Source: an uncultured Eubacteriales bacterium
GTDB lineage: Bacteria; Bacillota; Clostridia; Lachnospirales; JAISER01
Direction: 5' to 3'
DNA length: 64,000 nt
Assembly (NCBI GenBank): GCA_964545475.1
Contig: CAZJGG010000003.1
Span: 757 to 64,756 of the forward strand
Under the pieces are notes generated by a model. The model saw only the letters and a list, made by a program, of their open reading frames with translations. It ran no database searches and was not told where the DNA came from. Below are positions 9,534 to 32,412 of the stretch, in pieces (position 1 is the stretch's first letter; each line of letters begins with the position of its first letter). The translations under genes and the position numbers were made by a program.

Positions 9534-9558
9534 TATACAGAACCAGCCTTTTAATATT

Positions 9559-11628: not shown

Positions 11629-11630
11629 AA

Positions 11631-14600
11631 TTACATAAGTGTTAACTGCCTTGTTTCCGGTATTCCTTTAAAAACACCGTTTTTCTTTAAAAGTTCAATA
11701 ACGGTTTTATTTGTTTTAGTTCTTTCACGGAAATCTTCTATAGTGATAAATTCTCCGTCTTTTCTAGCTTCAACAATGTTTTGGGCAACACTGTCTCCAA
11801 GCCCGGAAATGGAGGATAAAGGCGGCATAAGTCCGTTGGGGGTTACGGTAAATTTTGTGGCTTGGGCTTCGTAAAGGTTTAATTCCGTAAACTTAAAGCC
11901 ACGTGTATACATTTCGTAAACAAGCTCCAAAACGGTGTAGGAAGCTTTGTCTTTAGCGGATGCTTCGTCTCCAAGAGAGCTAATCCGCCTCATTTCCAGC
12001 CGCAAAGTATCTATGCCGTGGCACATTGTTTCATAATTAAAATCTGAAACCTTAACGGAAAAAGTTGCGGCGTAAAAGCTGTAGGGGTGATATATTTTAT
12101 AATACCCAATTCTTACTGTCATCATAACGTAAGCAACGGCGTGACCTTTTGGGAACATATATTTAATTTTTTTGCAGGAATCAATGTACCATTCGTCAAC
12201 GTTTGCATTTCTCATAATTTCTTCCTGCTCCGCTGTAAGCCCTTTGCCTTTTCTAACAGATTCCATTATTTTAAAGGAATCTTTACGTGGAGCTCCTTTG
12301 TTTATTAAGTAAACCATAATATCGTCACGAGTTGGTATAATTTCTTTAAGAGTTGCAATGCCTTCCTTTACAAGCTCTTGGGCATTATTAATCCAAACGT
12401 CCGTTCCGTGGGAAAGCCCTGAAATACGTACAAGTTCCGCAAAAGTTGTGGGCTTAGTTTCCATTAGCATTCCTCTAACAAAGTGTGTGCCGAATTCTGG
12501 AAGCCCCAAAGTTCCTGTTTGGCAGTTTATTTCATTTAAGTTAACTCCCAAAGCTTCCGGGGACTGGAACAGAGAAATAATCCTTTTATCCCCTAAATCA
12601 ATGGTTTGTGGGTCTACGCCGGAAGTATCGTGAAGCATACGCACAATTGTTGGAACGTCGTGACCCAAAAGGTCAAGCTTTAACAGACGCCCCTCAATGG
12701 AGTGATAGTCAAAGTGTGTTGTTGTTATATTAGACGACGTATCGTTTGCCGGGCGTTGAACAGGGCAAAATTCATAAATGGAATGCCCTTTTGGTAAAAT
12801 AACAAGACCACCGGGGTGTTGCCCTGTTGTTTTTTTAATGCCAGAACAGCCGATTTTAAGCCTGTTTATTTCTGCCTGCCGTAAATTAAGCCCTTTTTCC
12901 TCTAAAAATTTCCGAACATAACCATAAGCCGTTTTTTCCGCAAGGGTGCTTATAGTGCCGGCTTTAAACACGTTTTCAGATCCAAAAAGAGATTCGGCGT
13001 ATTGATGGGCCTTAAGCTGATATTCCCCGGAAAAGTTAAGGTCAATATCTGGCTCTTTGTCGGCATCAAAGCCTAAAAAGGTTTCAAAAGGAATGTCGTG
13101 ACCGTCTTTGTGGAGAGGTTCACCGCAGTTTGGGCAGTTTTTGTCCGGCATATCGCAGCCGGAAGCCCCTGCAAACTGTTTAACAATATCCGAATCAAAA
13201 TCGGAATATTTACAGCTTTTGCAAACGTAGTGGGGGGAAAGAGGGTTAACCTCTGTAATTCCAGATAACGTGGCAACAAGGGACGAACCAACAGAGCCTC
13301 TTGAACCTACTAAATACCCGTCCTCCATTGATTTGGAAACAAGCTTTTGCGCCGCTATATACATAACGGAGAACCCGTTTTTAATAATAGAATCAAGCTC
13401 TCTATGAAGCCTTGCAGCAACAATTTCCGGCAAATTTTCGCTGTATACTGCTCTTGCTCTTTCCATTGTAAGCCGTTCAATTTCCTCTTTACAGCCGTCA
13501 ATATGGGGAGGGAACTTTCCGCTTGGAATAGGGGAGTAGTCTTCAAACATATCCGCTATTAAATTTGTATTTGTAACTACAACTTCTTTGGCAAGCGCTT
13601 CTCCTAAATATTCAAACTCTTTAAGCATTTCCTCTGTTGTGCGGTAATATAGAGGAGCTTGCAGGTGTGCATCGTTAAAGCCCTCTCCTGTCATAAGGAT
13701 TTGACGGAAAATAGCATCCTCCGGGTTTAAAAAGTGAACGTCGCATGTTGCAATAGCCAGCTTGTTATGGGCTTTTGCAAGATCTACAATCCGTTTGTTT
13801 ATGTTAATTAAATCCTGCATAGAGGAAACCTGACCGTCTCGTACTAAATACATGCAGTTAGGAATCGGCTGAATTTCATAATAATCATAAAAAGAAGCTA
13901 TGGAATTTATATATTGCTCTGGCTTGTTCTCTTTTATAGCTGTATAAAGCTCCCCGGCATCACACGCAGAGCCTAATATTAAACCCTCTTTAAGCCGAGA
14001 AAGCTCGCTTTTAGGTATTCTCGGGCGTTTAAAGAAATATTTTAAATGGGAAAGAGAAACAAGCTCGTAAAGGTGGTGTAGCCCTGTTAAATTTTTTGCA
14101 AAAATAATAGCGTGTTTGTGTTTAAGCTTGGATTTATCCATTTCGTTTGAAGCAATGGCGTTTATTTCCTCAATGTGGTTTACGCCTTTTTCTTGTAAAA
14201 TAGGCAAGCATTTAATAAATATTTCGGCTGTTGCCGCCGCATCGTCTACTGCTCTATGGTGGTTTAAAAGGGATACGCCTAAATGCCTTGCAACAACATC
14301 TAGCTTATGCTTATTAAGCCCCGGAAATAAAAGTCTGGAAAGCTCTAAGGTGTCCAAAACGGTGTTTGTTATGTAAATATTTTGGCGTTTTGCCGCATTT
14401 GTAACAAAGCCAACATCAAAAGAGGCGTTGTGAGCAACAAAAACACCGTCGCCAACAAAGCTTAAAAATTGAGGTAAAACATCAGTTATTGCAGGGGCGT
14501 TTTCCACCATTGCATTGGTTATGCCGGTTAAATCTGTAATTTTATCAGGTATGCGCCTTTTTGGGTTAACAAAAGTGCTGAACTTATCTGTTATAACTCC

Positions 14601-15950
14601 ATTTTCTAGCTTTACAGCCCCAATTTCAATAATTTCATCGGAGTTTTTTGAAAGCCCTGTTGTTTCAATGTCAAAAACAATAAAAGTGCTGTTAAGGGTT
14701 TGTCCTTTTGGGCTTTCAACAACAGAAGCTAAATCGTCAATAACATAGGCTTCAACGCCGTAGAGCACTTTAACGCCGTATTTTGCGGAAGCCGCCATAG
14801 CTTCAGGGTATGCCTGGGTAACGCCGTGGTCTGTAAGAGCAATTGCTCTATGCCCCCATGCCGCCGCACGCTCTAAATAATCGGAAATGGTGTTCATTCC
14901 ATCCATTGCGCTCATGTTTGTGTGCAAATGCAGTTCCACTCTTTTTTGCTCTGCATTATCCTGTCTTTTTAAAGATTTTTCCATTAGCGCAATTTCATTT
15001 GCCATTATGTTAAGTTCTTTTGAATATTCATCAAATTGAACTTTGCCTTTTACTTTTAAATATTTACCATTTTTAAGAATTGGTTTAAATTCATTAAATT
15101 TATCTGCTTTTGAAAAGAATTTTATTGTTATTGAGTCTGTGCCGTCTGTTATATCTGCTGTAACAAGTATGTTTCCGCTTTTTGTTTCCCTTGTCTCGCT
15201 GGAAATCACTTCACCGTTTACAATAATTTCAGAATCCTTTTCAAGTTTGTCGGAAAGCAAGACGCATTCGCCGTCAATGCTTTCAACAAGCTTTGTCTCT
15301 TTTCTTCCGCCACCTTTGCCAGAAAACTGCTTAAAGCCATCTTTTGGAGCAGGCTTAGGCGCTGGTTTTTGTATTTTAATGGGTAGGGCAGGTTCTTTTG
15401 GTATATCGTATGTAATATGTTCTTTTCTTTCCGTCTTTTTCTTTTTTTCACCGGGTTTGTATATAAAATCCACGTTTAGGCTTATTCCAAGGCGTTTTTC
15501 AATAAGTCCGCTTATAAGCTGGGGTATTCTTTTTCTAATAAATAAAAACTCATAGTTATAATTAATAGTAATTATAAGTTTGCTATTTTCTACAACCCAT
15601 TCAGAGGAGTTTAAAATTTTAGCGCACATATGGCTGGTATTGCTAACTTCGTGCAAAATGCTTTTCCAAATTAGGGATATAAGCTTTTTAGTGTCGCTTT
15701 CGCCAAAGTCGTAGCGCAAATGCACAGAAATATGCTCCATTTCGGGAAAGCTTTCTTTCATTTGGTTTTCAAGCTCCGTTAAATGTTTCTCGTCTAAAAC
15801 CTTGTTATGGCTTAAAAATAAGTCCATTGCTTTTTTTCCGGTACTTATTTTAAGGCTTGAAATTTCCGTCTGTTTAAAGCTGTCTTTTATATCATCAGTT
15901 AAATTGATTTTTTCAAAAACTTCGCAAAACTTTTTTAATTGTGCAGGCAT
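11631..15950 (-). CDS. polC: DNA polymerase III alpha subunit, PolC type
   Basis: 1439 aa. The PHP domain is interrupted by a DEDD exonuclease (FVVFDIETTGL...HNASFD...HRAVDDA), followed by the polymerase core. This architecture is unique to Firmicute PolC. Confidence 0.97.
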   Translation of the reverse strand: MPAQLKKFCEVFEKINLTDDIKDSFKQTEISSLKISTGKKAMDLFLSHNKVLDEKHLTELENQMKESFPEMEHISVHLRYDFGESDTKKLISLIWKSILHEVSNTSHMCAKILNSSEWVVENSKLIITINYNYEFLFIRKRIPQLISGLIEKRLGISLNVDFIYKPGEKKKKTERKEHITYDIPKEPALPIKIQKPAPKPAPKDGFKQFSGKGGGRKETKLVESIDGECVLLSDKLEKDSEIIVNGEVISSETRETKSGNILVTADITDGTDSITIKFFSKADKFNEFKPILKNGKYLKVKGKVQFDEYSKELNIMANEIALMEKSLKRQDNAEQKRVELHLHTNMSAMDGMNTISDYLERAAAWGHRAIALTDHGVTQAYPEAMAASAKYGVKVLYGVEAYVIDDLASVVESPKGQTLNSTFIVFDIETTGLSKNSDEIIEIGAVKLENGVITDKFSTFVNPKRRIPDKITDLTGITNAMVENAPAITDVLPQFLSFVGDGVFVAHNASFDVGFVTNAAKRQNIYITNTVLDTLELSRLLFPGLNKHKLDVVARHLGVSLLNHHRAVDDAAATAEIFIKCLPILQEKGVNHIEEINAIASNEMDKSKLKHKHAIIFAKNLTGLHHLYELVSLSHLKYFFKRPRIPKSELSRLKEGLILGSACDAGELYTAIKENKPEQYINSIASFYDYYEIQPIPNCMYLVRDGQVSSMQDLININKRIVDLAKAHNKLAIATCDVHFLNPEDAIFRQILMTGEGFNDAHLQAPLYYRTTEEMLKEFEYLGEALAKEVVVTNTNLIADMFEDYSPIPSGKFPPHIDGCKEEIERLTMERARAVYSENLPEIVAARLHRELDSIIKNGFSVMYIAAQKLVSKSMEDGYLVGSRGSVGSSLVATLSGITEVNPLSPHYVCKSCKYSDFDSDIVKQFAGASGCDMPDKNCPNCGEPLHKDGHDIPFETFLGFDADKEPDIDLNFSGEYQLKAHQYAESLFGSENVFKAGTISTLAEKTAYGYVRKFLEEKGLNLRQAEINRLKIGCSGIKKTTGQHPGGLVILPKGHSIYEFCPVQRPANDTSSNITTTHFDYHSIEGRLLKLDLLGHDVPTIVRMLHDTSGVDPQTIDLGDKRIISLFQSPEALGVNLNEINCQTGTLGLPEFGTHFVRGMLMETKPTTFAELVRISGLSHGTDVWINNAQELVKEGIATLKEIIPTRDDIMVYLINKGAPRKDSFKIMESVRKGKGLTAEQEEIMRNANVDEWYIDSCKKIKYMFPKGHAVAYVMMTVRIGYYKIYHPYSFYAATFSVKVSDFNYETMCHGIDTLRLEMRRISSLGDEASAKDKASYTVLELVYEMYTRGFKFTELNLYEAQATKFTVTPNGLMPPLSSISGLGDSVAQNIVEARKDGEFITIEDFRERTKTNKTVIELLKKNGVFKGIPETRQLTLM

Positions 15951-15965
15951 TAAATCATACTTTCT

Positions 15966-17021
15966 TTAGAATTTTATTATTTCTTCCATAAGCCTGTCAA
16001 GCATCTCGCTTTCAGATACTTTAGCAATTATTTCACCTTTTCTAAATATAAGACCACAGCCTTTGCCGCCGGCTATGCCAATGTCCGCTTCTTTGCCCTC
16101 GCCAACGCCGTTTACAACACAACCCATAATGGCTACGGTAATATCTTTATCAATACCTTTGCATTTTTCCTCCACCTTTGTTGCAAGCTTTATTAAGTCA
16201 ATTTCCGTCCGCCCACATGTTGGGCATGATATAAATTCTATTCCAAACTTTCTTAAATTAAGGGCTTTTAATATTTCTTTGGCACAACTTATTTCTTCAA
16301 CTGGGTTAGCTGTAAGAGAAACTCTTATAGTATCTCCTATTCCTTGGGCAAGAATCGCCCCAAGCCCTACGGAAGATTTTATTGCTCCCGAATAAGCTGT
16401 TCCGGCTTCTGTTATGCCTAAATGGAGGGGATAGTTTGTTTTTTCTGCAATGTTTAAATAACTTTCAATGCAAAAAGGAACGTTTGAAGCCTTTAACGAA
16501 ATAACAATTTCGTAAAAATCAAGCTCTTCTAAAATAGCAACGTGTCTAAGGGCACTTTCTACAATTCCTTGTGATGTAACGCCTTTGTATTTTTCAACTA
16601 AATCCTTTTCAAGAGAGCCGGAATTTACCCCGATTCTTATTGGAACATTTTTTTCTTTAGCAAGCTTTACAACTTCTTGAACTTTCCATTTTTCACCGAT
16701 ATTTCCGGGGTTTAAGCGCAGCTTGTCCGCTCCGTTTTTAATTGCTTCAATTGCAAGTTTGTAATCAAAATGAATGTCTGCCACAAGGGGTATATTTATG
16801 TCCTTTTTAATTTCCGTAATGGCTTCGGCACTTGCCTTGTCTTTACAGGAAACACGTACAATTTCGCAGCCCTCGTTTTCCAAAGCTTTAATTTGGGAAA
16901 CTGTAGCAGATATGTTTGCAGTATCTGTATTTGTCATGGATTGTATAAGAATGGGGTTTGTCCCACCAATTTTTTTATTGCCAATAATAATTTCTTTTGT
17001 AATTTTTCTGTTTTTCAGCAT
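15966..17021 (-). CDS. ispG: 4-hydroxy-3-methylbut-2-enyl diphosphate synthase (IspG/GcpE)
   Basis: 351 aa. Shows typical IspG TIM-barrel and 4Fe-4S domain motifs (VRVSC, CPTCGR, GCVVNGVGE). Confidence 0.93.
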   Translation of the reverse strand: MLKNRKITKEIIIGNKKIGGTNPILIQSMTNTDTANISATVSQIKALENEGCEIVRVSCKDKASAEAITEIKKDINIPLVADIHFDYKLAIEAIKNGADKLRLNPGNIGEKWKVQEVVKLAKEKNVPIRIGVNSGSLEKDLVEKYKGVTSQGIVESALRHVAILEELDFYEIVISLKASNVPFCIESYLNIAEKTNYPLHLGITEAGTAYSGAIKSSVGLGAILAQGIGDTIRVSLTANPVEEISCAKEILKALNLRKFGIEFISCPTCGRTEIDLIKLATKVEEKCKGIDKDITVAIMGCVVNGVGEGKEADIGIAGGKGCGLIFRKGEIIAKVSESEMLDRLMEEIIKF

Positions 17022-17093
17022 AAAAATCCCCTTTATTTGGAAAAATATATATGAGATTTAATAAACACGTCCTTTTAAGGAGGCAAGGCTTTA

Positions 17094-17984
17094 ATGAAAC
17101 ACTTTTACGGAACGAATAAAAAATCTACTTATTTTGAGGGCTGGTACTTTAAACAGCACAACCATGAAAATATGCTTGCGCTTATTCCCGGCATAAGTAT
17201 AAACGGAGATGGCTCTAAAAAGGCTTTTATACAGTTTATCACAAATACTGGTTCTTTTCAAATAAATTTCCCCTATGAAGACTTTCATGCGGAAACAAAA
17301 AGATTGTTTGTCAGAGTAGACAAATCGTATTTTTCTCCTGAGGGCATTTATTTGGATATTCAAAGACCAAACTTAGAAATACACGGTCAGTTAAACTTTA
17401 AAAATATAACGCCGCTAAAATACAGTGCTATGGGTGTTTTTTCTATGTTTAAGTTTATGGAATGTAACCATGATGTTTTAAGCCTTAACCATGAAGTTGA
17501 CGGCGTTGTTAACATAAACGGAAAAAACCTCGATTTTTCAAACTCTAGAGGTTATATAGAAAAGGACTATGGCAAAAGTTTCCCTAAGAAATACATTTGG
17601 CTTCAATGCAACGGCTTTGAAGAGAAAAACGTTTCCATAATGGTGTCCGTTGCTACAATTCCTTTTATGGCTACTGAATTTACTGGGTTAATAAGTATAG
17701 TTTATTATAGAGGTAAACAATATAGAATTGCAACTTATAACGGTGGCGCTCCTATTGTTGTAAACAATAACAAAATGATTGTTAAAAATAATAACTATAT
17801 GTTAAGGGTGAACTGGCCGGAAAACATTGCTTATGGCTTGTCCGCCCCGGTTAAAGGCGAAATGTCCAGAACAATTAATGAATGCCCGATAGGAGAAGCT
17901 AAGTTTACATTTTATAAGAAAAACAAAGAAATATTTACATTATCAAGCGATAAAGCAAGTATTGAAACTGTTGACTTTTTTTAG
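17094..17984 (+). CDS. Tocopherol-cyclase-like family protein
   Basis: 296 aa. The N-terminal STYFEGWYFKQ matches the hallmark FEGWYFK motif of tocopherol cyclase (VTE1-type) proteins. AAGGAGG SD is present. Confidence 0.55.
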   Translation: MKHFYGTNKKSTYFEGWYFKQHNHENMLALIPGISINGDGSKKAFIQFITNTGSFQINFPYEDFHAETKRLFVRVDKSYFSPEGIYLDIQRPNLEIHGQLNFKNITPLKYSAMGVFSMFKFMECNHDVLSLNHEVDGVVNINGKNLDFSNSRGYIEKDYGKSFPKKYIWLQCNGFEEKNVSIMVSVATIPFMATEFTGLISIVYYRGKQYRIATYNGGAPIVVNNNKMIVKNNNYMLRVNWPENIAYGLSAPVKGEMSRTINECPIGEAKFTFYKKNKEIFTLSSDKASIETVDFF

Positions 17985-18005
17985 TTTAATTTGCAATAGT
18001 GCTAC

Positions 18006-18890
18006 TTAAAGGCATAATAAAATAATAGACAAAAGCCCAGTTGTAAGCCCTGCAATTTTTGCTTTAGTGGGCTTATCTTTATAGACAGCAAATGAAAAAA
18101 TTGTGGCGGTGACTACAACTCCTCCGTTTAAAACAGGGTAATAAACGAAAGAGGGCAAAACCCCTGCTAAAAATAAGCCCAAGACGCTGGAAAAGCCGGA
18201 ATCTACACCGTGGGCAATAAATATTGCAAAAAACTTCTTATCTTTTAAATTTGAAATTACAGCTTTATTTTTTATTAAGTCAATAACAAGCAAAATTATG
18301 GCAACAATAATTGCAACGCCAAAAGTTATAGCCATAAATTCCCTCATATATTTGCCGGGGGTTATAACTTGCTGCATTTTGCTTGTTACCATAATTAAGC
18401 CATAACCGAAAAAAGCCCCTATAGAATAAATAAGCCATTTCAGGCTTTTTTTCTTTTCGCCGCCTTCATTTGAAATACTGCCTAAATAAAACGTTATGAG
18501 CAAAAGCATAAGCCCAACTATTTGTATTATTTTCATTTTTTCTCCCCATACCATTATGCCGTAAAAAACAGGTATTACAATTGAGGAAGAAAAAACAAGG
18601 GTAGTAAAAGCAAATGGCCCTACTTCAAAAGCCTTTGTATAAAGCAAAAAGCTTATTGTATATAAAACTCCTTGAAAGATTGCAACTTGAATGGTTTTAA
18701 TGGGTATGCCGGAAAAGTTTGAACCTGCTAAAAAAATTAAAAACGCTATAAACATGTAACCTATTGTATAAATATAATAGCTTGAAAGGTTAATCATGAA
18801 GCGTTTATTAAATTCTTTCAAAAAAACGTTTTGAATGCTTACTAAAAGTACAGAAGTTATTGTTAATAATGTAACCATATCCAACCCCAT
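18006..18890 (-). CDS. EamA/DMT-superfamily transporter (about 10 TM)
   Basis: 294 aa, with a duplicated 5-TM pattern. The start could instead be ATG 18878. Confidence 0.65.
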   Translation of the reverse strand: MGLDMVTLLTITSVLLVSIQNVFLKEFNKRFMINLSSYYIYTIGYMFIAFLIFLAGSNFSGIPIKTIQVAIFQGVLYTISFLLYTKAFEVGPFAFTTLVFSSSIVIPVFYGIMVWGEKMKIIQIVGLMLLLITFYLGSISNEGGEKKKSLKWLIYSIGAFFGYGLIMVTSKMQQVITPGKYMREFMAITFGVAIIVAIILLVIDLIKNKAVISNLKDKKFFAIFIAHGVDSGFSSVLGLFLAGVLPSFVYYPVLNGGVVVTATIFSFAVYKDKPTKAKIAGLTTGLLSIILLCL

Positions 18891-19040
18891 TTTTGTGAAA
18901 TATCCACCATTTTATAGCGATTTTTTCTAGTTGTCAATTTAAATAACCACTGATTAATTTATAATATTGTATTGTTAAAACATGTAAATGGTACTATAAT
19001 GTAATGGTAATGGTGTAAAATTATTTTTTGAGGTGATGTT

Positions 19041-20777
19041 ATGGAATACAGAAAAAGTTATGATGAATGGATAAACAATAAATACTATGACGAGGAAACA
19101 AAGAAAGAACTTTTAGCTATTTCTAACGACGAAAAAGAGATTGAAGACAGATTCCACACAAGCCTTGCATTTGGAACAGGAGGGCTTAGAGGTATTATTG
19201 GTGCGGGCACAAACCGCATGAACGTATACACTGTGCAAAAAGCCACACAAGGGCTTGCAAACACAATTTTAAAGCAAGGAATAGACTTATCAAAAACTTG
19301 CGTTTGTATAGCACACGACCCTCGCCGTTTATCATCTGAATTTGCTAAACAAACAGCTCTTGTTTTAAACGGAAACGGCATTAAGACAGTTGTTTTTGAT
19401 GGTATGCGCCCCACGCCATTTTTGTCTTTCGTTGTGCAAAAACTCGGCGCTATTGCAGGGGTTGTTATAACAGCAAGCCATAATCCTAAAGAATATAACG
19501 GCTATAAAGCATATTGGAGCGACGGCATTCAGCTTACATCACCGAGAGACGAAGAGGTTATAGACGAAGTTAACAAAATTGCAGATTTTGGGCAAGTAAA
19601 AATTGCAAACTATGACGAGGCAGTTAAAAATGGTTTATATACCGTTGGTTCTAAAGAGCTTGACGATGAATTTATTAAATATACTAAAGATTCCAGCTTA
19701 AACCCAGATTTAATAAAAGAACACGGCAAAGATTTAAACATTGTATACACTCCCCTTAATGGTGCAGGCAATATTTTTGTCCGCCGAGTTTTGAAAGAAA
19801 TGGGCTTTGAAAACGTTTTTGTTGTAAAAGAGCAAGAAAATCCAGACCCAACATTTAGTACTCTTGCATATCCAAACCCGGAAGATGCTAAAGCCTTTGA
19901 GCTTGCTTTAAAACTTGCAAATGAAGTTAACGGAGATATTGTTTTGGCAACAGATCCGGATTCCGACAGGCTTGGCGTAGTTGTAAAACATAACGGAGAA
20001 TATGTTTTTATTAACGGTAATATGATAGGCACGTTAATGTGCGAATACATTATAAGTCAAAAACAGAAAAACGGCGTATTACCTAAAGACGGCGCTGTTA
20101 TTTCAACAGTTGTGTCTACAAGGCTTACAAATGCAATAACAGATTATTACGGGCTCACATATTATGATGTTTTAACAGGATTTAAACACATTGGCACAAA
20201 AATGAAGCAGTTTGAAGATGAAAAGAGCAATTCATTTTTGTTTGCATTTGAAGAAAGTTACGGCACACTTGCAGGCCCTCATGTAAGAGATAAAGATGGC
20301 GTTTTGGCGGCAGTGCTAATGTGCGAAATTGCCCTTTATTATAAGCAACAAGGTTTAAGCGTTATTGATGCTCTTGAAAAAATGTATGAACGTTATGGTT
20401 TTTACAAAGAGGGAATTGAAACAATAACTCTTAAAGGGTTAGACGGCTTAATGGAAATGGCGAAAATTATGGCTAATTTGCGCACAAACCCTCCAATGGA
20501 AGTAAACGGAACTGCAATAACTTTGATTAAAGATTATAAGCTTAAAGAAGCGGTAAATACTTCAACAGGCGAAAAAACTGCTTTAACTCTTCCTGTTTCA
20601 GATGTTTTGCATTATACATTAGCAGACGGTTCATGGTTCTGCATTCGTCCTTCCGGCACTGAACCTAAAATTAAAATTTATTTCGGTGTAAAAGGGGAAA
20701 GCGCAGGGGATGCTTCCAAAAAGCTAGAAGCTTTAGTAAACGGCGCAATGGCTTTGGTTGAAAAAGCCGGAAAATAG
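19041..20777 (+). CDS. Phosphoglucomutase/phosphomannomutase-family phosphohexomutase (PgcA-like)
   Basis: 578 aa. Contains the active-site loop TASHNPKEYNGYK and the metal loop ATDPDSDR. Confidence 0.9.
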   Translation: MEYRKSYDEWINNKYYDEETKKELLAISNDEKEIEDRFHTSLAFGTGGLRGIIGAGTNRMNVYTVQKATQGLANTILKQGIDLSKTCVCIAHDPRRLSSEFAKQTALVLNGNGIKTVVFDGMRPTPFLSFVVQKLGAIAGVVITASHNPKEYNGYKAYWSDGIQLTSPRDEEVIDEVNKIADFGQVKIANYDEAVKNGLYTVGSKELDDEFIKYTKDSSLNPDLIKEHGKDLNIVYTPLNGAGNIFVRRVLKEMGFENVFVVKEQENPDPTFSTLAYPNPEDAKAFELALKLANEVNGDIVLATDPDSDRLGVVVKHNGEYVFINGNMIGTLMCEYIISQKQKNGVLPKDGAVISTVVSTRLTNAITDYYGLTYYDVLTGFKHIGTKMKQFEDEKSNSFLFAFEESYGTLAGPHVRDKDGVLAAVLMCEIALYYKQQGLSVIDALEKMYERYGFYKEGIETITLKGLDGLMEMAKIMANLRTNPPMEVNGTAITLIKDYKLKEAVNTSTGEKTALTLPVSDVLHYTLADGSWFCIRPSGTEPKIKIYFGVKGESAGDASKKLEALVNGAMALVEKAGK

Positions 20778-20795
20778 TTATTGATGTCATAAATC

Positions 20796-20850
20796 TAAGA
20801 GCCTGTTCAAAGCCTCGCTTTTAATGGGTTTTCGAGCAAATTTTTTGAGG
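20796..20850. repeat. Degenerate, inverted copy of one arm of the palindromic repeat family
   Basis: CTAAGAGCCTGTTCAAAGCCTCGCTTTTAATGGGTTTTCGAGCAAATTTTTT aligns to the reverse complement of 54122-54178. Confidence 0.55.
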
Positions 20851-20871
20851 CAACCGCTAAAGTGGTATCTT

Positions 20872-20918
20872 ATGGGCGTGTTGAAATTTTCCCAATAAGG
20901 ATTATTCAACACGCCCAT
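20872..20918. repeat. Hairpin with stem ATGGGCGTGTTGAA (REP-like), downstream of the mutase gene
   Basis: Perfect 14-bp inverted repeat (20872-20885 and 20905-20918) with a 19-nt loop. There is no T tract. Confidence 0.6.
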
Positions 20919-21047
20919 TAATTGTAAGCCGTACTATCCATAATTTTTTATTATGTCGTAGCACGGCTTTTTATAATGGGGAAAGGGGTTATATAGTCTA
21001 TAAATAAAATTAATCTTGTACAGAGCCTTGAAGAGGAGTAAAATGGT

Positions 21048-21152
21048 TAGAGCAATTTGACAAAACATTGACAGGTGTGGAGGGGAAACAGCAAACGTTT
21101 CACCGCTGTTTCCGCGAACATAGCTGTTTATGTTTTTGCAAATAGCTATATG
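21048..21152 (+). repeat. 105-bp direct repeat, left copy
   Basis: Aligns without gaps to 22350-22454 with 5 mismatches by my count. Contains the hairpin GGAAACAGC-N12-GCTGTTTCC (21084-21113). Confidence 0.9.
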
Positions 21153-21203
21153 AGTAAAGATTTTGTAAATTTTTTCAGAAATCTGTGTGAAAGGAGCGAT
21201 TGT

Positions 21204-22271
21204 TTGATAAAAAGGAAATGTGTTGTTACGATTGCTGCTATTTTGTGTGTCACCATAATGGGAGGATGCGCTAAGGGTGCTCAAACTGAGGTGCTGCAAC
21301 CAGTAGAGTCTTTATCTGAGCAGAAACAATCGGCATTGGAGGAGTCACCATATCAAGAAATTACAATTTCCATTGGTGCAGATGGATATCAGCTGGATGG
21401 AATTTTATGTTTGCCAACCTCTGACGATATCGAGGATGTGGTAATCTTGGTACATGGTTCGGGGCGAAGCGATCTGAACGCCTATAACAGTAAGGCAGGT
21501 CCTAATACGATGTTTCAAGATATTGCCATAGGGCTAGCAGAGCAGGGTATTGCCACAATACGCTATAATAAACGATATTTTCAATATCCTGACCATGCTG
21601 GCGAAGAGGTGACCATTGAAGATGAATCCCTCAATGATGTAGGGTCTGCCATTGCGTTTGCAAAAAATAATGAATATGCTCAGTTTAAGCGAATCACCAT
21701 AGTTGGGCACAGCCTAGGGGGGACGCTGGCACCCCAAATTGCAAAGGATCACCCTGCTGTCGCGGCGATTGTTTCTCTGGGGGGAACGCCAAGACATTTG
21801 GCAGATGTGATCTTTGACCAGAACATGAACTACATCAAACGTACCTTCAACAACGAGGATCAGAGTTTGCAAATACGACAGCTGGAAGAGCAGCTTCAAA
21901 AAACGAAGCAGCTTACCAAAGGAGAATCGGGTATCTCTTATTTTGGATACTCTTCATATTTTTGGGCTAGTCTCAATCGGATAAACGTTGCTGAGCTTGT
22001 GGGTGAATTGGATATTCCAATACTGGCTTTGCAGGGAGATGAAGATTTTCAAATAACCAAAGAAGCTGATTTTTTTGTATGGCAAGAAATCTTGCAAAAT
22101 AAGCCCAATGCCACGTTGATAAGCTATCCCAATCTAAATCATATCTTTATGCAATCAAACGGCAAGACCGACCGTAGCGAATATACCATTAAAGGCAGTG
22201 TAGATGCTAAGGTGATCAGTGATATGGCAAATTGGATTTTAGCACAAACAGAAGTCCGCAATCTCAATTAA
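21204..22271 (+). CDS. Lipoprotein alpha/beta-hydrolase (serine hydrolase, GHSLGG nucleophile elbow)
   Basis: Track ORF 21075..22271. I moved the start to TTG 21204, which has AAAGGAG 7 nt upstream. This gives a signal peptide plus lipobox (IKRKCVVTIAAILCVTIMGGC). Contains GHSLGG. The gene is visibly GC-richer than its flanks. Confidence 0.7.
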   Translation: MIKRKCVVTIAAILCVTIMGGCAKGAQTEVLQPVESLSEQKQSALEESPYQEITISIGADGYQLDGILCLPTSDDIEDVVILVHGSGRSDLNAYNSKAGPNTMFQDIAIGLAEQGIATIRYNKRYFQYPDHAGEEVTIEDESLNDVGSAIAFAKNNEYAQFKRITIVGHSLGGTLAPQIAKDHPAVAAIVSLGGTPRHLADVIFDQNMNYIKRTFNNEDQSLQIRQLEEQLQKTKQLTKGESGISYFGYSSYFWASLNRINVAELVGELDIPILALQGDEDFQITKEADFFVWQEILQNKPNATLISYPNLNHIFMQSNGKTDRSEYTIKGSVDAKVISDMANWILAQTEVRNLN

Positions 22272-22349
22272 TATTCGGTCATGTTAAAATAAGTAATCCA
22301 AGCCCCAAGGGAATACAGGTTCTTAAGTTGATAACATTAGAGCGGCATC

Positions 22350-22454
22350 TAGAGCAACTTGACAAAACATTAACAGGTGTGGAGTGGAAACAGCAGACGT
22401 TTCACCGCTGTTTCTGCGAACATAGCTGTTTATGTTTTTGCAAATAGCTATATG
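22350..22454 (+). repeat. 105-bp direct repeat, right copy
   Basis: See the left copy at 21048-21152. Confidence 0.9.
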
Positions 22455-22609
22455 TTGCTCCGTCAGCCTTTTATTAAAATTATGTTACTGCTTTTAATAT
22501 TTATTGTCTTCATTTCAATTTCTATTAAAAATTTTGAAAAGAAAAAACACTGTAAAATCAAGGAATTTGACAGCTTGGAAAAATTTTTAAAAAAATTTTA
22601 GAAAAATGC

Positions 22610-22638
22610 TTGACTTTTTTGAATATATGTAATACAAT
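22610..22638 (+). promoter_or_regulatory. Candidate sigma-A promoter for the tRNA pair
   Basis: TTGACT, 17 nt, TACAAT, about 50 nt upstream of tRNA-Phe. Confidence 0.55.
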
Positions 22639-22689
22639 ATCGTTCGTTGCGGTACACAAGTTAAGGCAAGCAACAAACAAAAGCCTTAA

Positions 22690-22762
<73 letters not shown>

Positions 22763-22780
22763 TATTTTTATCCGCACAAC

Positions 22781-22853
22781 GGGTTACTAGCTCAGCTGGT
22801 AGAGCACTGGACTTTTAATCCAGTTGTCCCGGGTTCGAGCCCCGGGTAACTCA
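22781..22853 (+). tRNA. tRNA-Lys (anticodon UUU)
   Basis: Acceptor GGGTTAC/GTAACTC, anticodon stem-loop CTGGA-CTTTTAA-TCCAG, T arm CCGGG-TTCGAGC-CCCGG. The 3' CCA is not encoded. Confidence 0.92.
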
Positions 22854-22854
22854 T

Positions 22855-22894
22855 AAGCCTTACAAGTCTAACGATTTGTAAGGCTTTTGTTTTA
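22855..22894 (+). terminator. Intrinsic terminator after the tRNA pair
   Basis: AAGCCTTACAA, 9-nt loop, TTGTAAGGCTT, followed by TTGTTTTAT. Confidence 0.8.
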
Positions 22895-23147
22895 TATTTT
22901 ACGTTTTACAGTGGCGTAGAAGTTTCTCTAACAAACAAGACAACAGAATGTTTCCAAAAGATATTTATTTTTATTATATATATAAATATTTTAACTTACG
23001 TTTGCAAAAGGCACATACATAAACAATTATTTTTACAAAACAAGTAAATTATTGTTGCAATTTCGTTAAAAATATGTTATTTTAGTTACAGATAGTGAAA
23101 TTTTATTTTTCACTATTTTTTTTATTGCATGATAATTAAGGGGGTAT

Positions 23148-24077
23148 TTGATGCTAAGATATTTGGCAAAAACTTTATTCGCCGGAGTCGTGTCGTTGTT
23201 TGTGCTTATAACAATTACATTTTTTCTGGTACATGCTATTCCAGGGGGGCCGTTTAGTGCAGCGGAGGAAAAAAACGTTCCACAGTTTGTTATTGACCGC
23301 ATGAACGAGAAATTCGGACTTAACGACCCGGTATACGTACAATACGGTCGCTACATGAAAAGCATTTTAAAAGGAGATTTAGGTATTTCCTACAAAAAAC
23401 AAAATACAACAGTTAACGAAATTGTAGAGCAAGGCTTTCCGGTTTCCGCAAAGGTTGGAGCATGGGCTGTTTTAGTTGCCGTTATTGTGGGTATTATTTT
23501 AGGTATTTTATCTGCAATTTATAAAAATACATTTATCGACTGGTTTTGTAGAATTTTTGCTACAATTGGTGTATCGGTTCCGGGCTTTGTTATCGGTGTA
23601 TTTTTGTTATATTTCTTCGCAGTGTATTTAGGGCTTTTCAGAACTATGGGGCTACAATCTTGGAAAGATTACGTTCTTCCCGTTGCAGGGCTTTCGTTTA
23701 CTCCTATCGCTTATATTTCAAGGCTTATGCGCTCAAGCATGCTTGAAAATATGCAGCAAGACTACATAAGAACGGCTAGAGCAAAAGGTGTAAAAGAATT
23801 TTTTGTTATAGTAAAACATGCTTTAAGAAACTCAATTATTCCTATTGTTTCATATGTCGGACCATTAATAGCGGCTTTATTAACTGGCAGCTTCGTTATT
23901 GAGAGATTGTTTACAATACCGGGAATAGGTCGGTTTTTCGTAATGGGTATTACTGACAGGGATTATACTATAGTACTGGGTATGACCATATTCTTCGGCG
24001 GTTTGCTTATTCTTTGTAACATCCTTGTAGACGCTGTTTATGTAGTAATTGATCCGAGAATTAAATTTGACGAGTAG
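23148..24077 (+). CDS. oppB: Oligopeptide ABC transporter permease (OppB/DppB type)
   Basis: 309 aa, about 6 TM, with the binding-protein-dependent permease EAA-type loop (YIRTARAKG). Confidence 0.88.
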   Translation: MMLRYLAKTLFAGVVSLFVLITITFFLVHAIPGGPFSAAEEKNVPQFVIDRMNEKFGLNDPVYVQYGRYMKSILKGDLGISYKKQNTTVNEIVEQGFPVSAKVGAWAVLVAVIVGIILGILSAIYKNTFIDWFCRIFATIGVSVPGFVIGVFLLYFFAVYLGLFRTMGLQSWKDYVLPVAGLSFTPIAYISRLMRSSMLENMQQDYIRTARAKGVKEFFVIVKHALRNSIIPIVSYVGPLIAALLTGSFVIERLFTIPGIGRFFVMGITDRDYTIVLGMTIFFGGLLILCNILVDAVYVVIDPRIKFDE

Positions 24078-24085
24078 GTGATAAG

Positions 24086-25033
24086 ATGAGTGAAGTAGCA
24101 TATTCAATAGATAATATTAATATTTCTGATAATCTTTTTAACCCAATGCCCGAAGGACAGTCGGACATGGAAAAAATCGTAAGAAAAAGCAAGACGTTTT
24201 GGCAAGATGCATGGGGCAGATTTAAGAAAAACCCGTTAGCCATTGCTGGTCTTGTAATTCTTGTCATTATGGTTATTTTTGCAATACTAGGTCCAATACT
24301 TTCGCCTTATACATATGACCAACAGAATATTTTGAACCAATATCAATCTCCTAATGCGCAGCACTGGTTTGGAACAGATAAGTTCGGCAGGGATATTTTT
24401 GTAAGAATTGCTTATGGCGCAAGGATAAGCTTGGCAATTGGTTTTGCAGCGGCGGCTATAAACATTGTAATTGGTGTTATTTATGGCGGCGTTGCAGGTT
24501 ATTTTGGCGGCAAAATTGATATTATAATGATGCGTTTTGTAGACATTATTGCAGGTATTCCGTCTTTATGTTATGTTATCCTTATAATGCTTTATTTAGG
24601 CAGCAATATTACAAGTATATTGATTGCCATTTGCGTATCTTCATGGACGAGAACGGCTCGTGTTGTTCGTTCACAAGTTTTAACCCTTAGAGAACAAGAT
24701 TTTATTATGGCTGCTAGATGTATCGGTGAAGGTGATTTGTCGATTATTTTTAAGCACTTAATACCAAACAGCCTTGGGCCAATTATAGTTACAGTATCGT
24801 TTTTAATACCGGATGCCATTTTTACAGAAGCATTCTTAAGTTTTTTAGGTATCGGCATTAAAGTGCCAATGGCAAGCTGGGGCACTCTTGCAAATGATGC
24901 CATACCAACGCTTTCATCTTATCCTTATCTAATGTTTATTCCGGCAATTGCAATAAGCGTAACTATATTTGCGCTTAACTTTATCGGCGACGGCTTAAGA
25001 GACAGCCTTGACCCGAAACTTAAGAATAGATAA
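24086..25033 (+). CDS. oppC: Oligopeptide ABC transporter permease (OppC/DppC type)
   Basis: 315 aa with an OppC-type N-terminal extension and permease core. Confidence 0.88.
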   Translation: MSEVAYSIDNINISDNLFNPMPEGQSDMEKIVRKSKTFWQDAWGRFKKNPLAIAGLVILVIMVIFAILGPILSPYTYDQQNILNQYQSPNAQHWFGTDKFGRDIFVRIAYGARISLAIGFAAAAINIVIGVIYGGVAGYFGGKIDIIMMRFVDIIAGIPSLCYVILIMLYLGSNITSILIAICVSSWTRTARVVRSQVLTLREQDFIMAARCIGEGDLSIIFKHLIPNSLGPIIVTVSFLIPDAIFTEAFLSFLGIGIKVPMASWGTLANDAIPTLSSYPYLMFIPAIAISVTIFALNFIGDGLRDSLDPKLKNR

Positions 25034-25045
25034 GGGGGAATAGCG

Positions 25046-26050
25046 GTGAGTAATATACTTGAAGTTAAAAACTTAAAAACAACATTTTTTACTGAAGATG
25101 GAAAAGTACAAGCCGTTCGTGGCATTGATTTTAATATAAAAAAAGGCGAATCTGTGGGAATCGTTGGGGAATCCGGCTGCGGCAAAAGCGTTACAATGCT
25201 TTCGATTATGCGTTTATTGTCAAGCAACGCAAATTTTTCTGCCGATTACATAAACTTTGAAGGTGAAAACCTTATTAATAAGACCCGGGCGGATATGCGT
25301 GGCATACAAGGGAATCAGATAGGCATGATTTTTCAAGACCCTATGACGTCCTTAAACCCGGTTTTTACAATTGGAGATCAAATTTGCGAGCCTTTGAAGA
25401 TACATCAAAAATTAAAAGGTGCGGAAGCAAAGAAAAAAGCAGTGGAGCTTTTAAAGCTTGTTGGTATTCCCAGCCCAGAAAGCCGTTTAAAGCAATATCC
25501 TCATGAATTTTCCGGAGGTATGCGCCAAAGGGTTATGATTGCTATTGCCTTAAGTTGTAATCCAAGGCTTTTAATTGCAGACGAACCCACAACTGCACTA
25601 GACGTTACAATTCAAGCCCAAATTTTAGATCTTATGAACGAGCTTAAAGCAAAGCTTGATATGTCTATAATTATGATTACCCATGACTTAGGTGTTATCG
25701 CAAGCACATGCTCAAAGGTTATTGTAATGTATGGCGGTCTTATTATAGAAGAAGCCAGCGCAGACGAATTGTTTGAAAACGCTAAACACCCTTATACTTG
25801 GGGTCTTATAAATTCCTTGCCAAGAGTAACCGAGGGGGGCAAAAAAGAAAAGCTGTTCCCAATACCGGGAAGCCCGCCGGACTTACTTGCGCCACCCAAA
25901 GGCTGCCCTTTTGCGCCAAGATGCCAAAAGGCAATGATGATTTGTCAAGATTATATGCCTAATTTCTGTGATGTATCCGAGACTCATAAAGTCGCTTGTT
26001 GGCTTATGCATCCAAAGGCGAAAAATTTGGACGGAGGAAGATTGGCATGA
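25046..26050 (+). CDS. oppD: Oligopeptide ABC transporter ATPase (OppD type)
   Basis: GTG start. Walker A GESGCGKS, signature FSGGMRQR, Walker [13 protein letters not shown], and a C-terminal oligopeptide-type extension. Confidence 0.9.
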
Positions 26051-27015
26051 GCGAACAAATGATAGTTAAAAACCTAAAAAAACATTTCCCCATAAGAAAG
26101 GGCTTTTTTGGAGGGGAAAGCAAAGTTGCAAAAGCTGTTGATGATGTTAGCTTTACTATAAATAAAGGTGAAACATTAGGGCTTGTTGGTGAATCCGGCT
26201 GCGGTAAAACCACTGTAGGAAGGTGCATTTTAAAGCTGTATTCTTTAACCTCCGGAGAAATTTGGTTTAATGGCGTAGATATTTCAAAGTTTGACAGAAA
26301 TGAAATGCTGCCTTATCGCAAAAAAATACAGATGATATTCCAAGACCCATTTACCTCTTTGGATCCTCGTATGACCATAGGGCAAATTATCGGAGCACCT
26401 CTTGCTGTACACGGGCTTTACGAGGGGAGCGCAAGGCAGGATAGAATTAAGGAGCTTATTTCAGATGTAGGGCTTAAAAGCGACCATATTAACCGTTATC
26501 CCCATGAATTTTCCGGCGGACAGCGGCAAAGGATTGGCATTGCAAGGGCTTTGGCGGTTGAGCCTGAGTTTATTGTTTGCGATGAGCCGGTTTCCGCATT
26601 GGACGTTTCGATTCAAGCACAAATTATTAATTCTCTTGTGGAGTTCCAAAAGGAACTGGGGCTTACATATTTGTTTATTTCTCATGACCTTTCAGTTGTG
26701 CGATATATTTCTGATAAAGTAGGGGTTATGTATCTGGGTAACATGGTTGAATATGCTGAAGTTGGGGAGATGTATTCAAATATGCAGCATCCTTATTCAA
26801 AATCATTGTTTTCCGCTTTGCCGGAAGCAAACCCGAAAAAAGCAAGGGAAGCAAAACGCATAATTTTACAAGGAGATTTACCTTCGCCAATTAACCCGCC
26901 ATCGGGTTGCGCATTTAGGACGAGATGCAGCGAATGTATGCCTATTTGCAGCGAGCAAAAACCTGCTTTTAAAGACATTGGCGGCAATCACTTTGTTGCT
27001 TGTCATAAGTTCTAG
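26047..27015 (+). CDS. oppF: Oligopeptide ABC transporter ATPase (OppF type)
   Basis: I placed the start at ATG 26047, which overlaps the oppD stop as ATGA and has GGAGGA upstream. Contains GESGCGKTT, FSGGQRQR and IVCDEPVSALD. Confidence 0.9.
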   Translation: MSEQMIVKNLKKHFPIRKGFFGGESKVAKAVDDVSFTINKGETLGLVGESGCGKTTVGRCILKLYSLTSGEIWFNGVDISKFDRNEMLPYRKKIQMIFQDPFTSLDPRMTIGQIIGAPLAVHGLYEGSARQDRIKELISDVGLKSDHINRYPHEFSGGQRQRIGIARALAVEPEFIVCDEPVSALDVSIQAQIINSLVEFQKELGLTYLFISHDLSVVRYISDKVGVMYLGNMVEYAEVGEMYSNMQHPYSKSLFSALPEANPKKAREAKRIILQGDLPSPINPPSGCAFRTRCSECMPICSEQKPAFKDIGGNHFVACHKF

Positions 27016-27152
27016 TTATAACCGCTAAAGTGTAATTATTGTTACACTTTGGTTATAAAATATAATACCGTAGTAATTTACGGGAAATGGCGGCTTTGCC
27101 GCCGGGGGCTATTTATAATCTTGCTCCCTAAAAATAACAAGGAGGAAAAACA

Positions 27153-28829
27153 ATGAAAAAAAATGTAGCAATTTTATTGGCACTTGTATTGACAGTAGCT
27201 TCTTTTGCAGGTTGCGCAAGCAAGCCGGCTGCTCCGCCGGCAGATAGTGGGCAACCAACAGAATCCGCAAGCACAGGTGGAGAAAGCAGCGAAGCACCTG
27301 CTGAAAGCAGCGCCAAGCCAGCCAGTGCAACTTGGGCTTTTTCAAATGAAATTGAACAAATGGATCCGGCTCTTAGCAACTACTCAAGATCAAACATGAT
27401 GCTTAAAAACGTATTCGGAGGACTTTTCAGAGTTAACGAAGAAAACATTCCTGAAAAAGTTTATTGCGAAGATTACACTGTTGACGAAACAGGCACAAAG
27501 TATGAATTTAAAATTGTGCAGGGTGCTAAATGGTCCGACGGTTCTCCTCTTACAGCACATGACTTTGAATATAACATGAAACGTGTTGCAGACCCTAACA
27601 TAGCTTCAAAAGCGGCGGCTGATTCATTTTTCCTTAAAAACGCTGAAAGAGCTTTTAACGGAGAATGTTCTCTTGATGAAATCGGTGTAAAAGCTATTGA
27701 CGACACAACTTTACAAATTGAATTATCAGGGCCAACGCCATATTTCCTTTATGTATTAACTATGCCTTCTTACTTCCCGGTTAAAAAGGAAATTGTTGAA
27801 CAACAAGGCGATGCGTGGACAAAATCTCCTGACACTTACATAAGTAACGGTGCATTTATGGCAAAAGAAATTAGCCCTTTAAACTATACTTTTGTTAAAA
27901 ACCCTAACTTCGTTTTTGCTGATCAAGTAGGTTTAGAAGAACTTAAAATCGTTATTATGGATTCAAGAGAGGCTCACTTTGCAGCTTACAAAACAGGTGA
28001 CATTGATGTATCCGACTATTTAAGCGCAGAAGCTATATCTGAATATAAAGACTCAAGCGAATTGAAATTATCAGACAGAGTTAACCTTTATTATTTCGAC
28101 TTAAACAACTACAATAAAGAAATGTCTGACGTTAGAGTAAGAAAAGCTCTTTCAATGGCTATTGATAGAAAATTAATTATTAATAATATTATTGAAAAAT
28201 CACATCACCCAGCTTACAGTATAATACCTTACGGTATGCCGGACTTGCTTGACGGAAGCAAACAATTCCGTGATGTATCCGGAGATTTATTTACTGAAGA
28301 CGTTGAACAAGCAAAACAATTGCTTGCAGAAGCTGGTTATCCAAACGGAGAAGGACTTCCAGTTCTTAAATTCTTTACACAATCTAACCAGATTGACGTA
28401 GATACAGCGCAAGCTATGCAAGACATGTGGTTGTCTAACCTTGGGGTAAAAACAGAAATTACTACTTTTGAAGATAAAGCTTACTGGAGCGAACAAGACC
28501 AAATGCAATACGATATTTTCCGTGACGGCTTTACTTCAAGCTTCCCAGATCCATACGGCATGTTCTTAACATTTATTTGGCAAAAACAAGAAAGACAAAC
28601 TGGCTGGAAGAGCGAAGAATTTGAAAAATTAATGGCAGATTCTCGTGCAACTACAGACCAAGCAAAACGTGAAGAATATTTCTTAAAAGCTGAAAAACTT
28701 ATGATTGATGAGATGCCTATTATACCATTGTACCACATGGTTGATAACTTCCTTTGTAAGCCACACTTAAAAGGCATTTTCAAAACAGGCGGCGGCCACA
28801 TTGTATTTGAAAAGGCTTATGTAGAGTAA
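27153..28829 (+). CDS. Family-5 peptide-binding lipoprotein (OppA/MppA-like)
   Basis: 558 aa. Lipobox LTVASFAGC followed by a Pro/Ser/Ala/Glu linker. AAGGAGG SD is present. It lies after the ATPase genes. Confidence 0.85.
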   Translation: MKKNVAILLALVLTVASFAGCASKPAAPPADSGQPTESASTGGESSEAPAESSAKPASATWAFSNEIEQMDPALSNYSRSNMMLKNVFGGLFRVNEENIPEKVYCEDYTVDETGTKYEFKIVQGAKWSDGSPLTAHDFEYNMKRVADPNIASKAAADSFFLKNAERAFNGECSLDEIGVKAIDDTTLQIELSGPTPYFLYVLTMPSYFPVKKEIVEQQGDAWTKSPDTYISNGAFMAKEISPLNYTFVKNPNFVFADQVGLEELKIVIMDSREAHFAAYKTGDIDVSDYLSAEAISEYKDSSELKLSDRVNLYYFDLNNYNKEMSDVRVRKALSMAIDRKLIINNIIEKSHHPAYSIIPYGMPDLLDGSKQFRDVSGDLFTEDVEQAKQLLAEAGYPNGEGLPVLKFFTQSNQIDVDTAQAMQDMWLSNLGVKTEITTFEDKAYWSEQDQMQYDIFRDGFTSSFPDPYGMFLTFIWQKQERQTGWKSEEFEKLMADSRATTDQAKREEYFLKAEKLMIDEMPIIPLYHMVDNFLCKPHLKGIFKTGGGHIVFEKAYVE

Positions 28830-28859
28830 TTTTAATACTTTAATTTTAAATTAATATCA

Positions 28860-28888
28860 GGGCGTGTTTGAATTTTTCAGACACGCCC
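28860..28888. repeat. Hairpin with stem GGGCGTGT...ACACGCCC, related to the one at 20872
   Basis: GGGCGTGTTTGAATTTTTCAGACACGCCC. No T tract follows. It sits between the binding-protein gene and ldcA. Confidence 0.55.
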
Positions 28889-28937
28889 GATTAAGGATTA
28901 TTAGAAAAATATTGCCATAAATGGAGGTCAGTTAATT

Positions 28938-29873: not shown

Positions 29874-29887
29874 TAGGAGGCTTTAAA

Positions 29888-31018: not shown

Positions 31019-31052
31019 ATGTTAATAAATATATTTAAAAAGAAGGCTTGAA

Positions 31053-32399: not shown

Positions 32400-32412
32400 A
32401 AGGAGATTAAAC

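Follow-up and report, generated by a model that had tools for sequence, protein, structure and literature searches.

A MITE-like palindromic repeat pair around a foreign-looking esterase gene in an uncultured Clostridia bacterium

A stretch of 64,000 nt from an uncultured Eubacteriales bacterium (contig CAZJGG010000003.1), called the window below and used for the numbering of all coordinates, was analysed for a direct repeat that brackets a single gene of a lipoprotein alpha/beta-hydrolase, hereafter the esterase. The repeat, designated element B, was found in three copies with like edges, and two of them lie in the same orientation around the esterase gene with its foreign-looking codon usage. 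[quoted passage not shown] The mobilisation of the esterase by the B pair is put forward as a proposal only and is unproven. Genome features of this kind are well known, and the finding represents no new system and no new principle. What it adds is a small palindromic repeat family (B) that had not been described before, together with a second, larger one (family A), in a deep-branching, unsampled lineage of Clostridia.

Structure and copies of element B

The two copies of the window, B1 (21048-21152) and B2 (22350-22454), were aligned over 105 nt without gaps and differed at 5 positions (95% identity), these being T/C at 21056, G/A at 21070, G/T at 21083, A/G at 21094 and C/T at 21113 in B1/B2, respectively. 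All differences fell within the first 66 nt, the last 39 nt were identical, and beyond the repeat edges the similarity ceased abruptly at either side. The 30-nt core of the repeat occurred twice in the window when 0 occurrences were expected from 100 shuffles, and a covariance model built from both copies found B1 and B2 as the sole copies of the element in the 64 kb. An earlier inspection of the letters (the sequence-only reading) had described gap-free 105-bp repeats with 5 mismatches and exactly one gene between them, a lipoprotein alpha/beta-hydrolase with the GHSLGG motif. The former was confirmed by the alignment and the latter by Pfam matches and the motif.

The folding of the repeat revealed that its whole length forms a single imperfect palindrome, with 35 base pairs and 97% of cells paired. 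The palindrome proper covers 103 nt (21048-21150), runs from TAGAGC to GCTATA and has the end sequence TAGAGCAATTTG. The RNA folds of B1 and B2 reached -42.4 kcal/mol (z = -7.0) and -37.8 kcal/mol (z = -5.9), respectively, and no shuffle folded as well as either copy. The fold was also significant when DNA parameters were used (-24 kcal/mol for B1; z = -6.2 and -4.2 for B1 and B2, respectively). Because of G-U pairs, the fold was stronger on the plus strand (-42 vs -32 kcal/mol), and the covariance model of B1 and B2 matched its own reverse complement with 49 bits. Helix 1 of the B1 fold consists of 24 pairs. The terminal inverted repeats of approximately 27 bp are imperfect, with identity at 21 of 27 positions when one end is compared with the other in reverse complement.

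The apical hairpin GGAAACAGC-N12-GCTGTTTCC was found in both B1 and B2. The sequence-only reading had recognised this hairpin in each repeat, with one substitution in the loop (21094) and another converting the closing G-C pair to G-U (21113), and both assignments agreed with the folding. However, the 30-nt apical part, although real, was only the tip of a structure in which the whole 103 nt form one palindrome. When the five differences between the copies were placed on the fold, one was located in the loop, two retained the pair via G-U or A-U, one made a pair and one broke a pair. No double compensatory changes occurred between B1 and B2; therefore, covariation between the copies provides no evidence that an RNA is under selection.

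All copies of the element start with TA and finish with TA. The element is non-coding and short (103-105 bp, thus below 500 bp), and the open reading frames (ORFs) that cross it were over-extensions of the gene caller. Neither a consensus scan nor a reading of the sequence gave a convincing sigma-70 promoter inside B or across its ends, and no complete promoter or terminator was found within the element.

The third copy was recovered by concatenating the spurious intergenic ORFs into one protein query, which was searched against 5.8 billion sequences. The sole match was a 549-aa flagellin (P0124) encoded on another contig of 42,714 bp. The annotated N-terminus of this protein, IAICKNINSYVRRNSGETFAVPVPHLLMFCQIAL, is the translated reverse complement of element B. 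It agreed with B1 and with B2 at 30 of 34 aa each over palindrome positions 21049-21150 (102 nt), the match ending where the palindrome ends, and some of its variant residues were as in B1 while others were as in B2. The real flagellin start, MSNMVINTN, lies after a GGAGG-coding stretch 21 codons further on. Residues 1-57 of P0124 form a false N-terminal extension of approximately 57 aa, which is read from the reverse strand of B. The third copy, as read from this N-terminus, is located approximately 63 nt upstream of the flagellin and is inverted relative to the flagellin gene.

Three copies are documented in this way, a pair in the window and a single one on the 42,714-bp contig. Element B occupies at least two unlinked loci, and with respect to genes it is found in either orientation. 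A further copy with equal boundaries, beside an unrelated gene and in the opposite orientation, indicates that B is a discrete dispersed element rather than a duplication private to one locus or a strand-specific leader. The sequence-only reading had named a common promoter/leader module upstream of many unrelated genes as an outcome that would count against its view; the repeat proved to be dispersed, but it is not a promoter or leader module.

Further copies were sought elsewhere. Exact or degenerate repeat cores gave no match in genome, metagenome (searched twice) and viral contig collections, and blastn of the repeat gave none against plasmids and phages. The covariance model R1 was run against 36 loci of other Firmicutes/Clostridia-type metagenome-assembled genomes and Logan contigs, the flagellin locus of a relative and six loci of esterase homologues (~460 kb), and only generic terminator hairpins were obtained; element B was not found at the relative's flagellin locus, nor were repeats like it found at the loci of the esterase homologues. 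The host belongs to an unsampled, deep-branching lineage of Clostridia, the PGM protein being at most 53% identical among the best 80 species-representative genomes listed. When the PGM protein was used to search these species-representative genomes for syntenic loci, the best relative, at 53% identity, was too distant for a comparison of the site. Element B was considered specific to this unsampled Clostridia lineage.

The esterase gene and its distribution

The gene bracketed by B1 and B2 codes for a 355-aa lipoprotein with an EstD-like domain. The protein matched the DLH/Abhydrolase/S9/S33 families of Pfam and contained the nucleophile motif GHSLGG; the closest NCBIfam model was EstD, with a score of 224 bits that was under the model cut-off. 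The closest homologue was 54% identical, and the protein cluster of the esterase had one member. The preferred start is TTG 21204, from which the lipoprotein signal MIKRK...IMGGC is read. In the public annotation, the gene starts at ATG 21150, inside B1, and codes for 373 aa; this ATG has no Shine-Dalgarno sequence, whereas TTG 21204 has a strong one. Element B thus corrupts automatic annotation, with both the esterase and the flagellin being called with false N-terminal extensions through the repeat.

The G+C content of the esterase gene was 42.7% compared to 37.6% for the whole window, which placed the gene in the top 4% of segments of equal size. The extremes over 100 nt were 61% within the esterase gene and 27% within the mutase gene. 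CTG accounted for 23% of the Leu codons (0-6% in the neighbours) and GTG for 30% of the Val codons (0-11% in the neighbours). Among the 49 ORFs of the window, the esterase had the highest G+C content at third codon positions (GC3, z = 2.3) and the worst fit of synonymous codon usage to the window (z = -3.1). The statement of the sequence-only reading that the gene was richer in G+C and used CTG and GTG codons more than its neighbours therefore held qualitatively. The esterase was probably imported.

Two further observations were made on atypical genes and on the esterase family. A gene of a DUF3792 membrane protein at 8096-8515 on the minus strand showed a codon fit nearly as poor as that of the esterase (-1.255 vs -1.269) with a GC3 of 0.379, and may be a second atypical gene. 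A short esterase homologue of 335 aa (locus L088, 5351-5722) adjoins a MerR regulator and a TnpV gene. Such a mobile-element context suggests that this esterase family moves horizontally.

The variable presence of the esterase was assessed in other assemblies. Logan contigs of three other sequencing runs were 100.000% identical to the window at 9041-20858 and 23049-32895. In all three runs, the contigs stopped at exactly 20858 and resumed at exactly 23049. The 2.2 kb between these positions, which comprise the rest of the family-A remnant, B1, the esterase, B2, both transfer RNA (tRNA) genes and the terminator, were not in the Logan contigs. Of 11 window proteins that were looked up, ten were recorded from both NCBI and Logan, and the esterase was recorded from NCBI only. 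No esterase fragment with an identity above 54% was present in the homology search. The absence of the esterase from assemblies with identical flanks fits a recent gain or loss and resembles a presence/absence polymorphism, as judged indirectly from the sequences on record. The flagellin P0124 was likewise recorded from NCBI only and not from Logan.

Origin of the bracketed unit

The closest counterparts of element B, also in the way it works, are MITE-type repeats such as RUP and ERIC. The definition of MITEs, the flanking and mobilisation of genes by their pairs and their action as recombination hotspots have been described (PMC10969869). RUP, a MITE of Streptococcus pneumoniae, is 107 bp long; its terminal inverted repeats are IS630-like, and its RNA folds into a stem-loop (PMC3049150). 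Element B, at ~103-105 bp, is likewise a non-coding, intergenic repeat of a Gram-positive bacterium with terminal inverted repeats and a predicted RNA stem-loop. The pneumococcal BOX, RUP and SPRITE repeats cluster, and small repeats nest (PMC10969869). Element B is similar to RUP in clustering with other small repeat families. Both ends of B carry TA, and TA is the insertion site of IS630-type elements. However, RUP is present in more than 100 copies and has a candidate parent insertion sequence, IS630-Spn1, whereas three copies of B are documented; the two were likened by features and not by sequence.

The ERIC/IRU, REP/BIME and Correia repeats occur in either orientation and can stabilise or destabilise flanking mRNAs (PMC3049150). 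Like element B, these repeats, of which ERIC/IRU are ~127 bp long, are imperfect palindromes of ~100-150 bp lying in transcribed intergenic regions in either orientation, but they belong to Proteobacteria, are unrelated to B in sequence and reach tens to hundreds of copies. The Correia elements also have defined promoter and IHF sites, which were not seen in B. In Acinetobacter, identical MITEs flank class 1 integrons (PMC10969869), and there, as here, two copies of a small non-autonomous repeat surround accessory DNA devoid of its own mobility genes. The Acinetobacter pairs, however, are identical, lie in plasmid or resistance regions and show target-site duplications, whereas the B pair is 5% divergent, encloses one chromosomal gene and is not known from a second location.

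We proposed that the esterase gene was acquired horizontally into the intergenic region between pgm and the tRNA genes. By one route, the B pair and the esterase would constitute a MITE-bracketed, composite-transposon-like unit and would have arrived together. By another, a circle carrying B and the esterase may have integrated at a resident B by a single crossover. In either case, direct repeats of 105 nt and 95% identity could render the esterase deletable or amplifiable via homologous recombination, and a deletion would leave a solo B. Such an excisable or amplifiable unit had been suggested in the sequence-only reading; the suggestion is plausible and gains indirect support from the foreign-looking composition of the gene and its absence from three assemblies with identical flanks, but an empty site was not recovered. 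If the promoter-like site at 21017-21044 is used, the esterase mRNA would start with B1 as a 5' hairpin of -42 kcal/mol, and read-through transcription would make B2 a 3' stem-loop. Both hairpins would then affect transcript stability, as has been proposed for the RUP, BOX and ERIC stem-loops (PMC3049150). If the pair does mediate the gain or loss of the esterase, the locus would be a Gram-positive chromosomal case of MITE-bracketed gene exchange between otherwise identical strains and would be useful for the study of gene flux at the micro-scale in Firmicutes of the gut and the environment.

Several results weigh against the interpretation of a MITE-like pair linked to a horizontally gained gene. 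Only three copies of B are documented, and a cognate transposase or a parent insertion sequence was not encoded within the window. No target-site duplication longer than TA flanks the copies, and a TA duplication is inseparable from the element's own TA ends. The 5% divergence between B1 and B2 indicates that the pair did not arise by a very recent duplication. Neither an empty site, a solo-B allele nor a contig bridging the gap was recovered when the small ORFs around B2 and a hypothetical B1/B2 hybrid were looked up exactly, none being on record, or when the concatenated-ORF query was used. The Logan breaks at 20858 and 23049 were neither at the edges of B nor inside it; thus, the missing stretch is not simply the visible product of a B1 x B2 deletion. 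Finally, the chance of two copies falling in adjacent intergenic gaps was ~0.04-0.14, halved for like orientation, and was only mildly improbable.

The main rival explanation, which we regard as possible though doubtful, is that B1 and B2 were inserted independently beside a resident gene, in permissive intergenic DNA, and took no part in the acquisition of the gene. It agrees with the 5% divergence of the copies, with their modest adjacency probability, with the family-A solo arm at the same spot (20794-20853) and with the bunching and nesting of small repeats (PMC10969869). It fits less well with the presence of only two B copies in 64 kb, one on either side of the gene with the most foreign codon usage in the window, which alone among the 11 proteins looked up was absent from the otherwise identical assemblies.

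That same absence, with contigs that are 100% identical in the flanks and break reproducibly at 20858 and 23049 in three assemblies, could also be produced by a metagenome assembly artefact, in which an esterase segment from another strain or organism sharing B was joined at the repeats. The atypical composition of the esterase and the bracketing of the insert by repeats are consistent with such a joining. However, the five differences between B1 and B2 are distributed through the first 66 nt, leaving an identical stretch of no more than the last 39 nt; therefore, the assembly path is unambiguous at k-mers above 39. A donor of the chimera would also need B on both sides of the gene, so that a gene between two B copies would exist somewhere even in that case, and the Logan breaks do not lie inside B. 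An artefact was considered unlikely.

A duplicated functional structured RNA or operator, namely a 5' leader, a small RNA (sRNA) or a binding module of a regulator, was judged improbable. The TTGACA-N5-TTGACA sequence in the left terminal repeat resembles the direct repeats of response regulators, the strong fold is better on the plus strand, a promoter-like site ends 3 nt 5' of B1, and the esterase and flagellin genes each have a copy upstream. On the other hand, the copy next to the flagellin gene and that gene itself lie on opposite strands, B2 is 3' of a gene and has no promoter in the consensus scan, B was absent from the flagellin locus of a relative, and neither compensatory double changes nor a complete promoter or terminator were seen in the element. 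The Rfam/Infernal comparison suggested in the sequence-only reading was run and gave no match to the repeat at E <= 10; within 19000-25000, only the two tRNAs were above noise, and a described cis-regulatory RNA or sRNA was rejected for lack of a covariance-model match in this region. The duplicated structured 5' leader or sRNA of that reading was abandoned on the same grounds, together with the match of the palindrome to its own reverse complement and the opposite orientation of the third copy to the flagellin.

The arrangement of a single gene between imperfect palindromes of ~103 nt in the same orientation mimics a cassette array, and the cargo is foreign-looking and possibly variable. Element B could in this case serve a gene-cassette system as its recombination site, in the form of a folded hairpin (attC/CALIN/Xer-dif-like), with the recombinase encoded elsewhere. 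The attC sites of integrons, such as the Vibrio VCRs, and CALINs, which are attC clusters lacking an integrase, are likewise imperfect palindromes of ~60-140 bp that form single-strand hairpins between single promoterless genes, and chromosomal arrays with highly similar sites exist. The attC core motifs GTTRRRY and RYYYAAC were, however, absent from both strands of B1 and B2 with 30 nt on either side, and neither an integrase nor another recombinase is encoded in the 64 kb. Moreover, the orientation is not fixed, the third copy being inverted relative to the flagellin gene, and only one 'cassette' is present. A cassette site of this kind is very improbable, and we give equally little credence to its wider form, in which B would delimit hairpin-bounded single-gene cassettes in a Gram-positive host, analogous to attC but without core motifs, with the esterase and perhaps a variable flagellin being exchangeable.

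Three more candidates were rejected. The repeat is not the att site of a tRNA island, having no similarity to tRNAs, lying 235 nt upstream of the tRNA genes and having no integrase in the window. It is not the template or variable repeat (TR/VR) of a diversity-generating retroelement, because both copies are intergenic, the mismatches (T/C, G/A, G/T, A/G and C/T) are not adenine-specific and the window encodes no reverse transcriptase. A retron was dropped because the window encodes neither a reverse transcriptase nor an integrase, and because of the mismatch pattern.

Neighbouring features

The window is of a housekeeping character, with NusA, RimP, PolC, IspG, PGM, two oligopeptide ABC transporter (Opp) operons, Lgt, SpoVA genes and dipicolinate synthase. 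Protein scans of the Pfam/NCBIfam type revealed no transposase, integrase or other recombinase encoded in it. The coordinates of element B, the esterase gene and the surrounding features are given in Table 1. The promoter scan was weak, with 13 sites found compared to 7.4 expected in shuffles.

Table 1. Coordinates of element B, the esterase gene and adjacent features in the window
Feature	Position	Strand	Remarks
Element B copy 1 (B1)	21048..21152	+	direct repeat; 51 nt 5' of esterase start codon
Element B copy 2 (B2)	22350..22454	+	orientation as B1; 78 nt 3' of esterase stop, 235 nt 5' of tRNA-Phe
Left terminal inverted repeat of B1	21048..21074	.	pairs with 21124-21150; contains TTGACA-N5-TTGACA
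Right terminal inverted repeat of B1	21124..21150	.	pairs with 21048-21074
Apical hairpin of B1, GGAAACAGC-N12-GCTGTTTCC	21084..21113	.	B2 counterpart 22386-22415
Esterase gene (lipoprotein alpha/beta-hydrolase, 355 aa, EstD-like domain)	21204..22271	+	lipobox IMGGC, motif GHSLGG
Shine-Dalgarno sequence AAAGGAG	21190..21196	+	7 nt 5' of TTG 21204; read from sequence
Promoter-like site TGTACA-16-TAAAAT	21017..21044	+	consensus scan, 9/12 matches; ends 3 nt 5' of B1
Family-A solo arm	20794..20853	+	just upstream of B1; second palindromic repeat family
Family-A full copies in the window	54005-54178 and 32227-32403
Family-A solo arms in the window	20794-20853 and 9483-9526
tRNA-Phe(GAA)	22690-22762	+	begins 235 nt after B2
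tRNA-Lys(UUU)	22781-22853	+	after tRNA-Phe

The location given in the sequence-only reading, 235 bp from tRNA-Phe/tRNA-Lys and just after a degenerate palindromic repeat (20794-20918), proved accurate. The tRNA pair has its own promoter-like site (22610-22638) and terminator (22855-22886), and both genes are neighbours that lie outside the repeat unit.

Family A is palindromic, approximately 180 nt long when complete, with arms of ~55-60 nt, and occupies intergenic positions after genes. Its termini are of two sub-types, TCTAAGAGCCTGTT... and GGCAACCTCTAAAAAC.... Since a family-A arm lies beside the B copies, the locus is a small cluster of interspersed repeats. Directly after the solo arm, a perfect 14-bp inverted repeat was found at 20872-20918, ATGGGCGTGTTGAA-N19-TTCAACACGCCCAT, which contains TATGGGCGT, a sequence also present at the centre of the complete A copies. 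Further, the stretch 21166-21219, comprising the 5' untranslated region and first codons of the esterase gene, matched the family-A right arm at 32350-32407 in a pairwise alignment (0/1000 shuffles). This candidate arm was not relied on, as a profile of A arms failed to detect it. Part of the match is sequence resembling a ribosome-binding site.

The last ATG of B2 opens an ORF of 49 aa (22452-22601) with a hydrophobic stretch, MLLRQPFIKIMLLLLIFIVFISISIK..., and without a Shine-Dalgarno sequence. No homologue of this ORF was found in 5.8 billion proteins, and it is probably spurious.

The two Opp operons, 23148-28829 on the plus strand and 55678-61181 on the minus strand, are paralogous and contain stretches with 73-77% DNA identity. 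At 2272-7236 on the plus strand, a 1,654-aa alpha-2-macroglobulin-like protein (Big_5, MG2 and A2M bait region) is encoded, in a genome of the sporulating Clostridia type.

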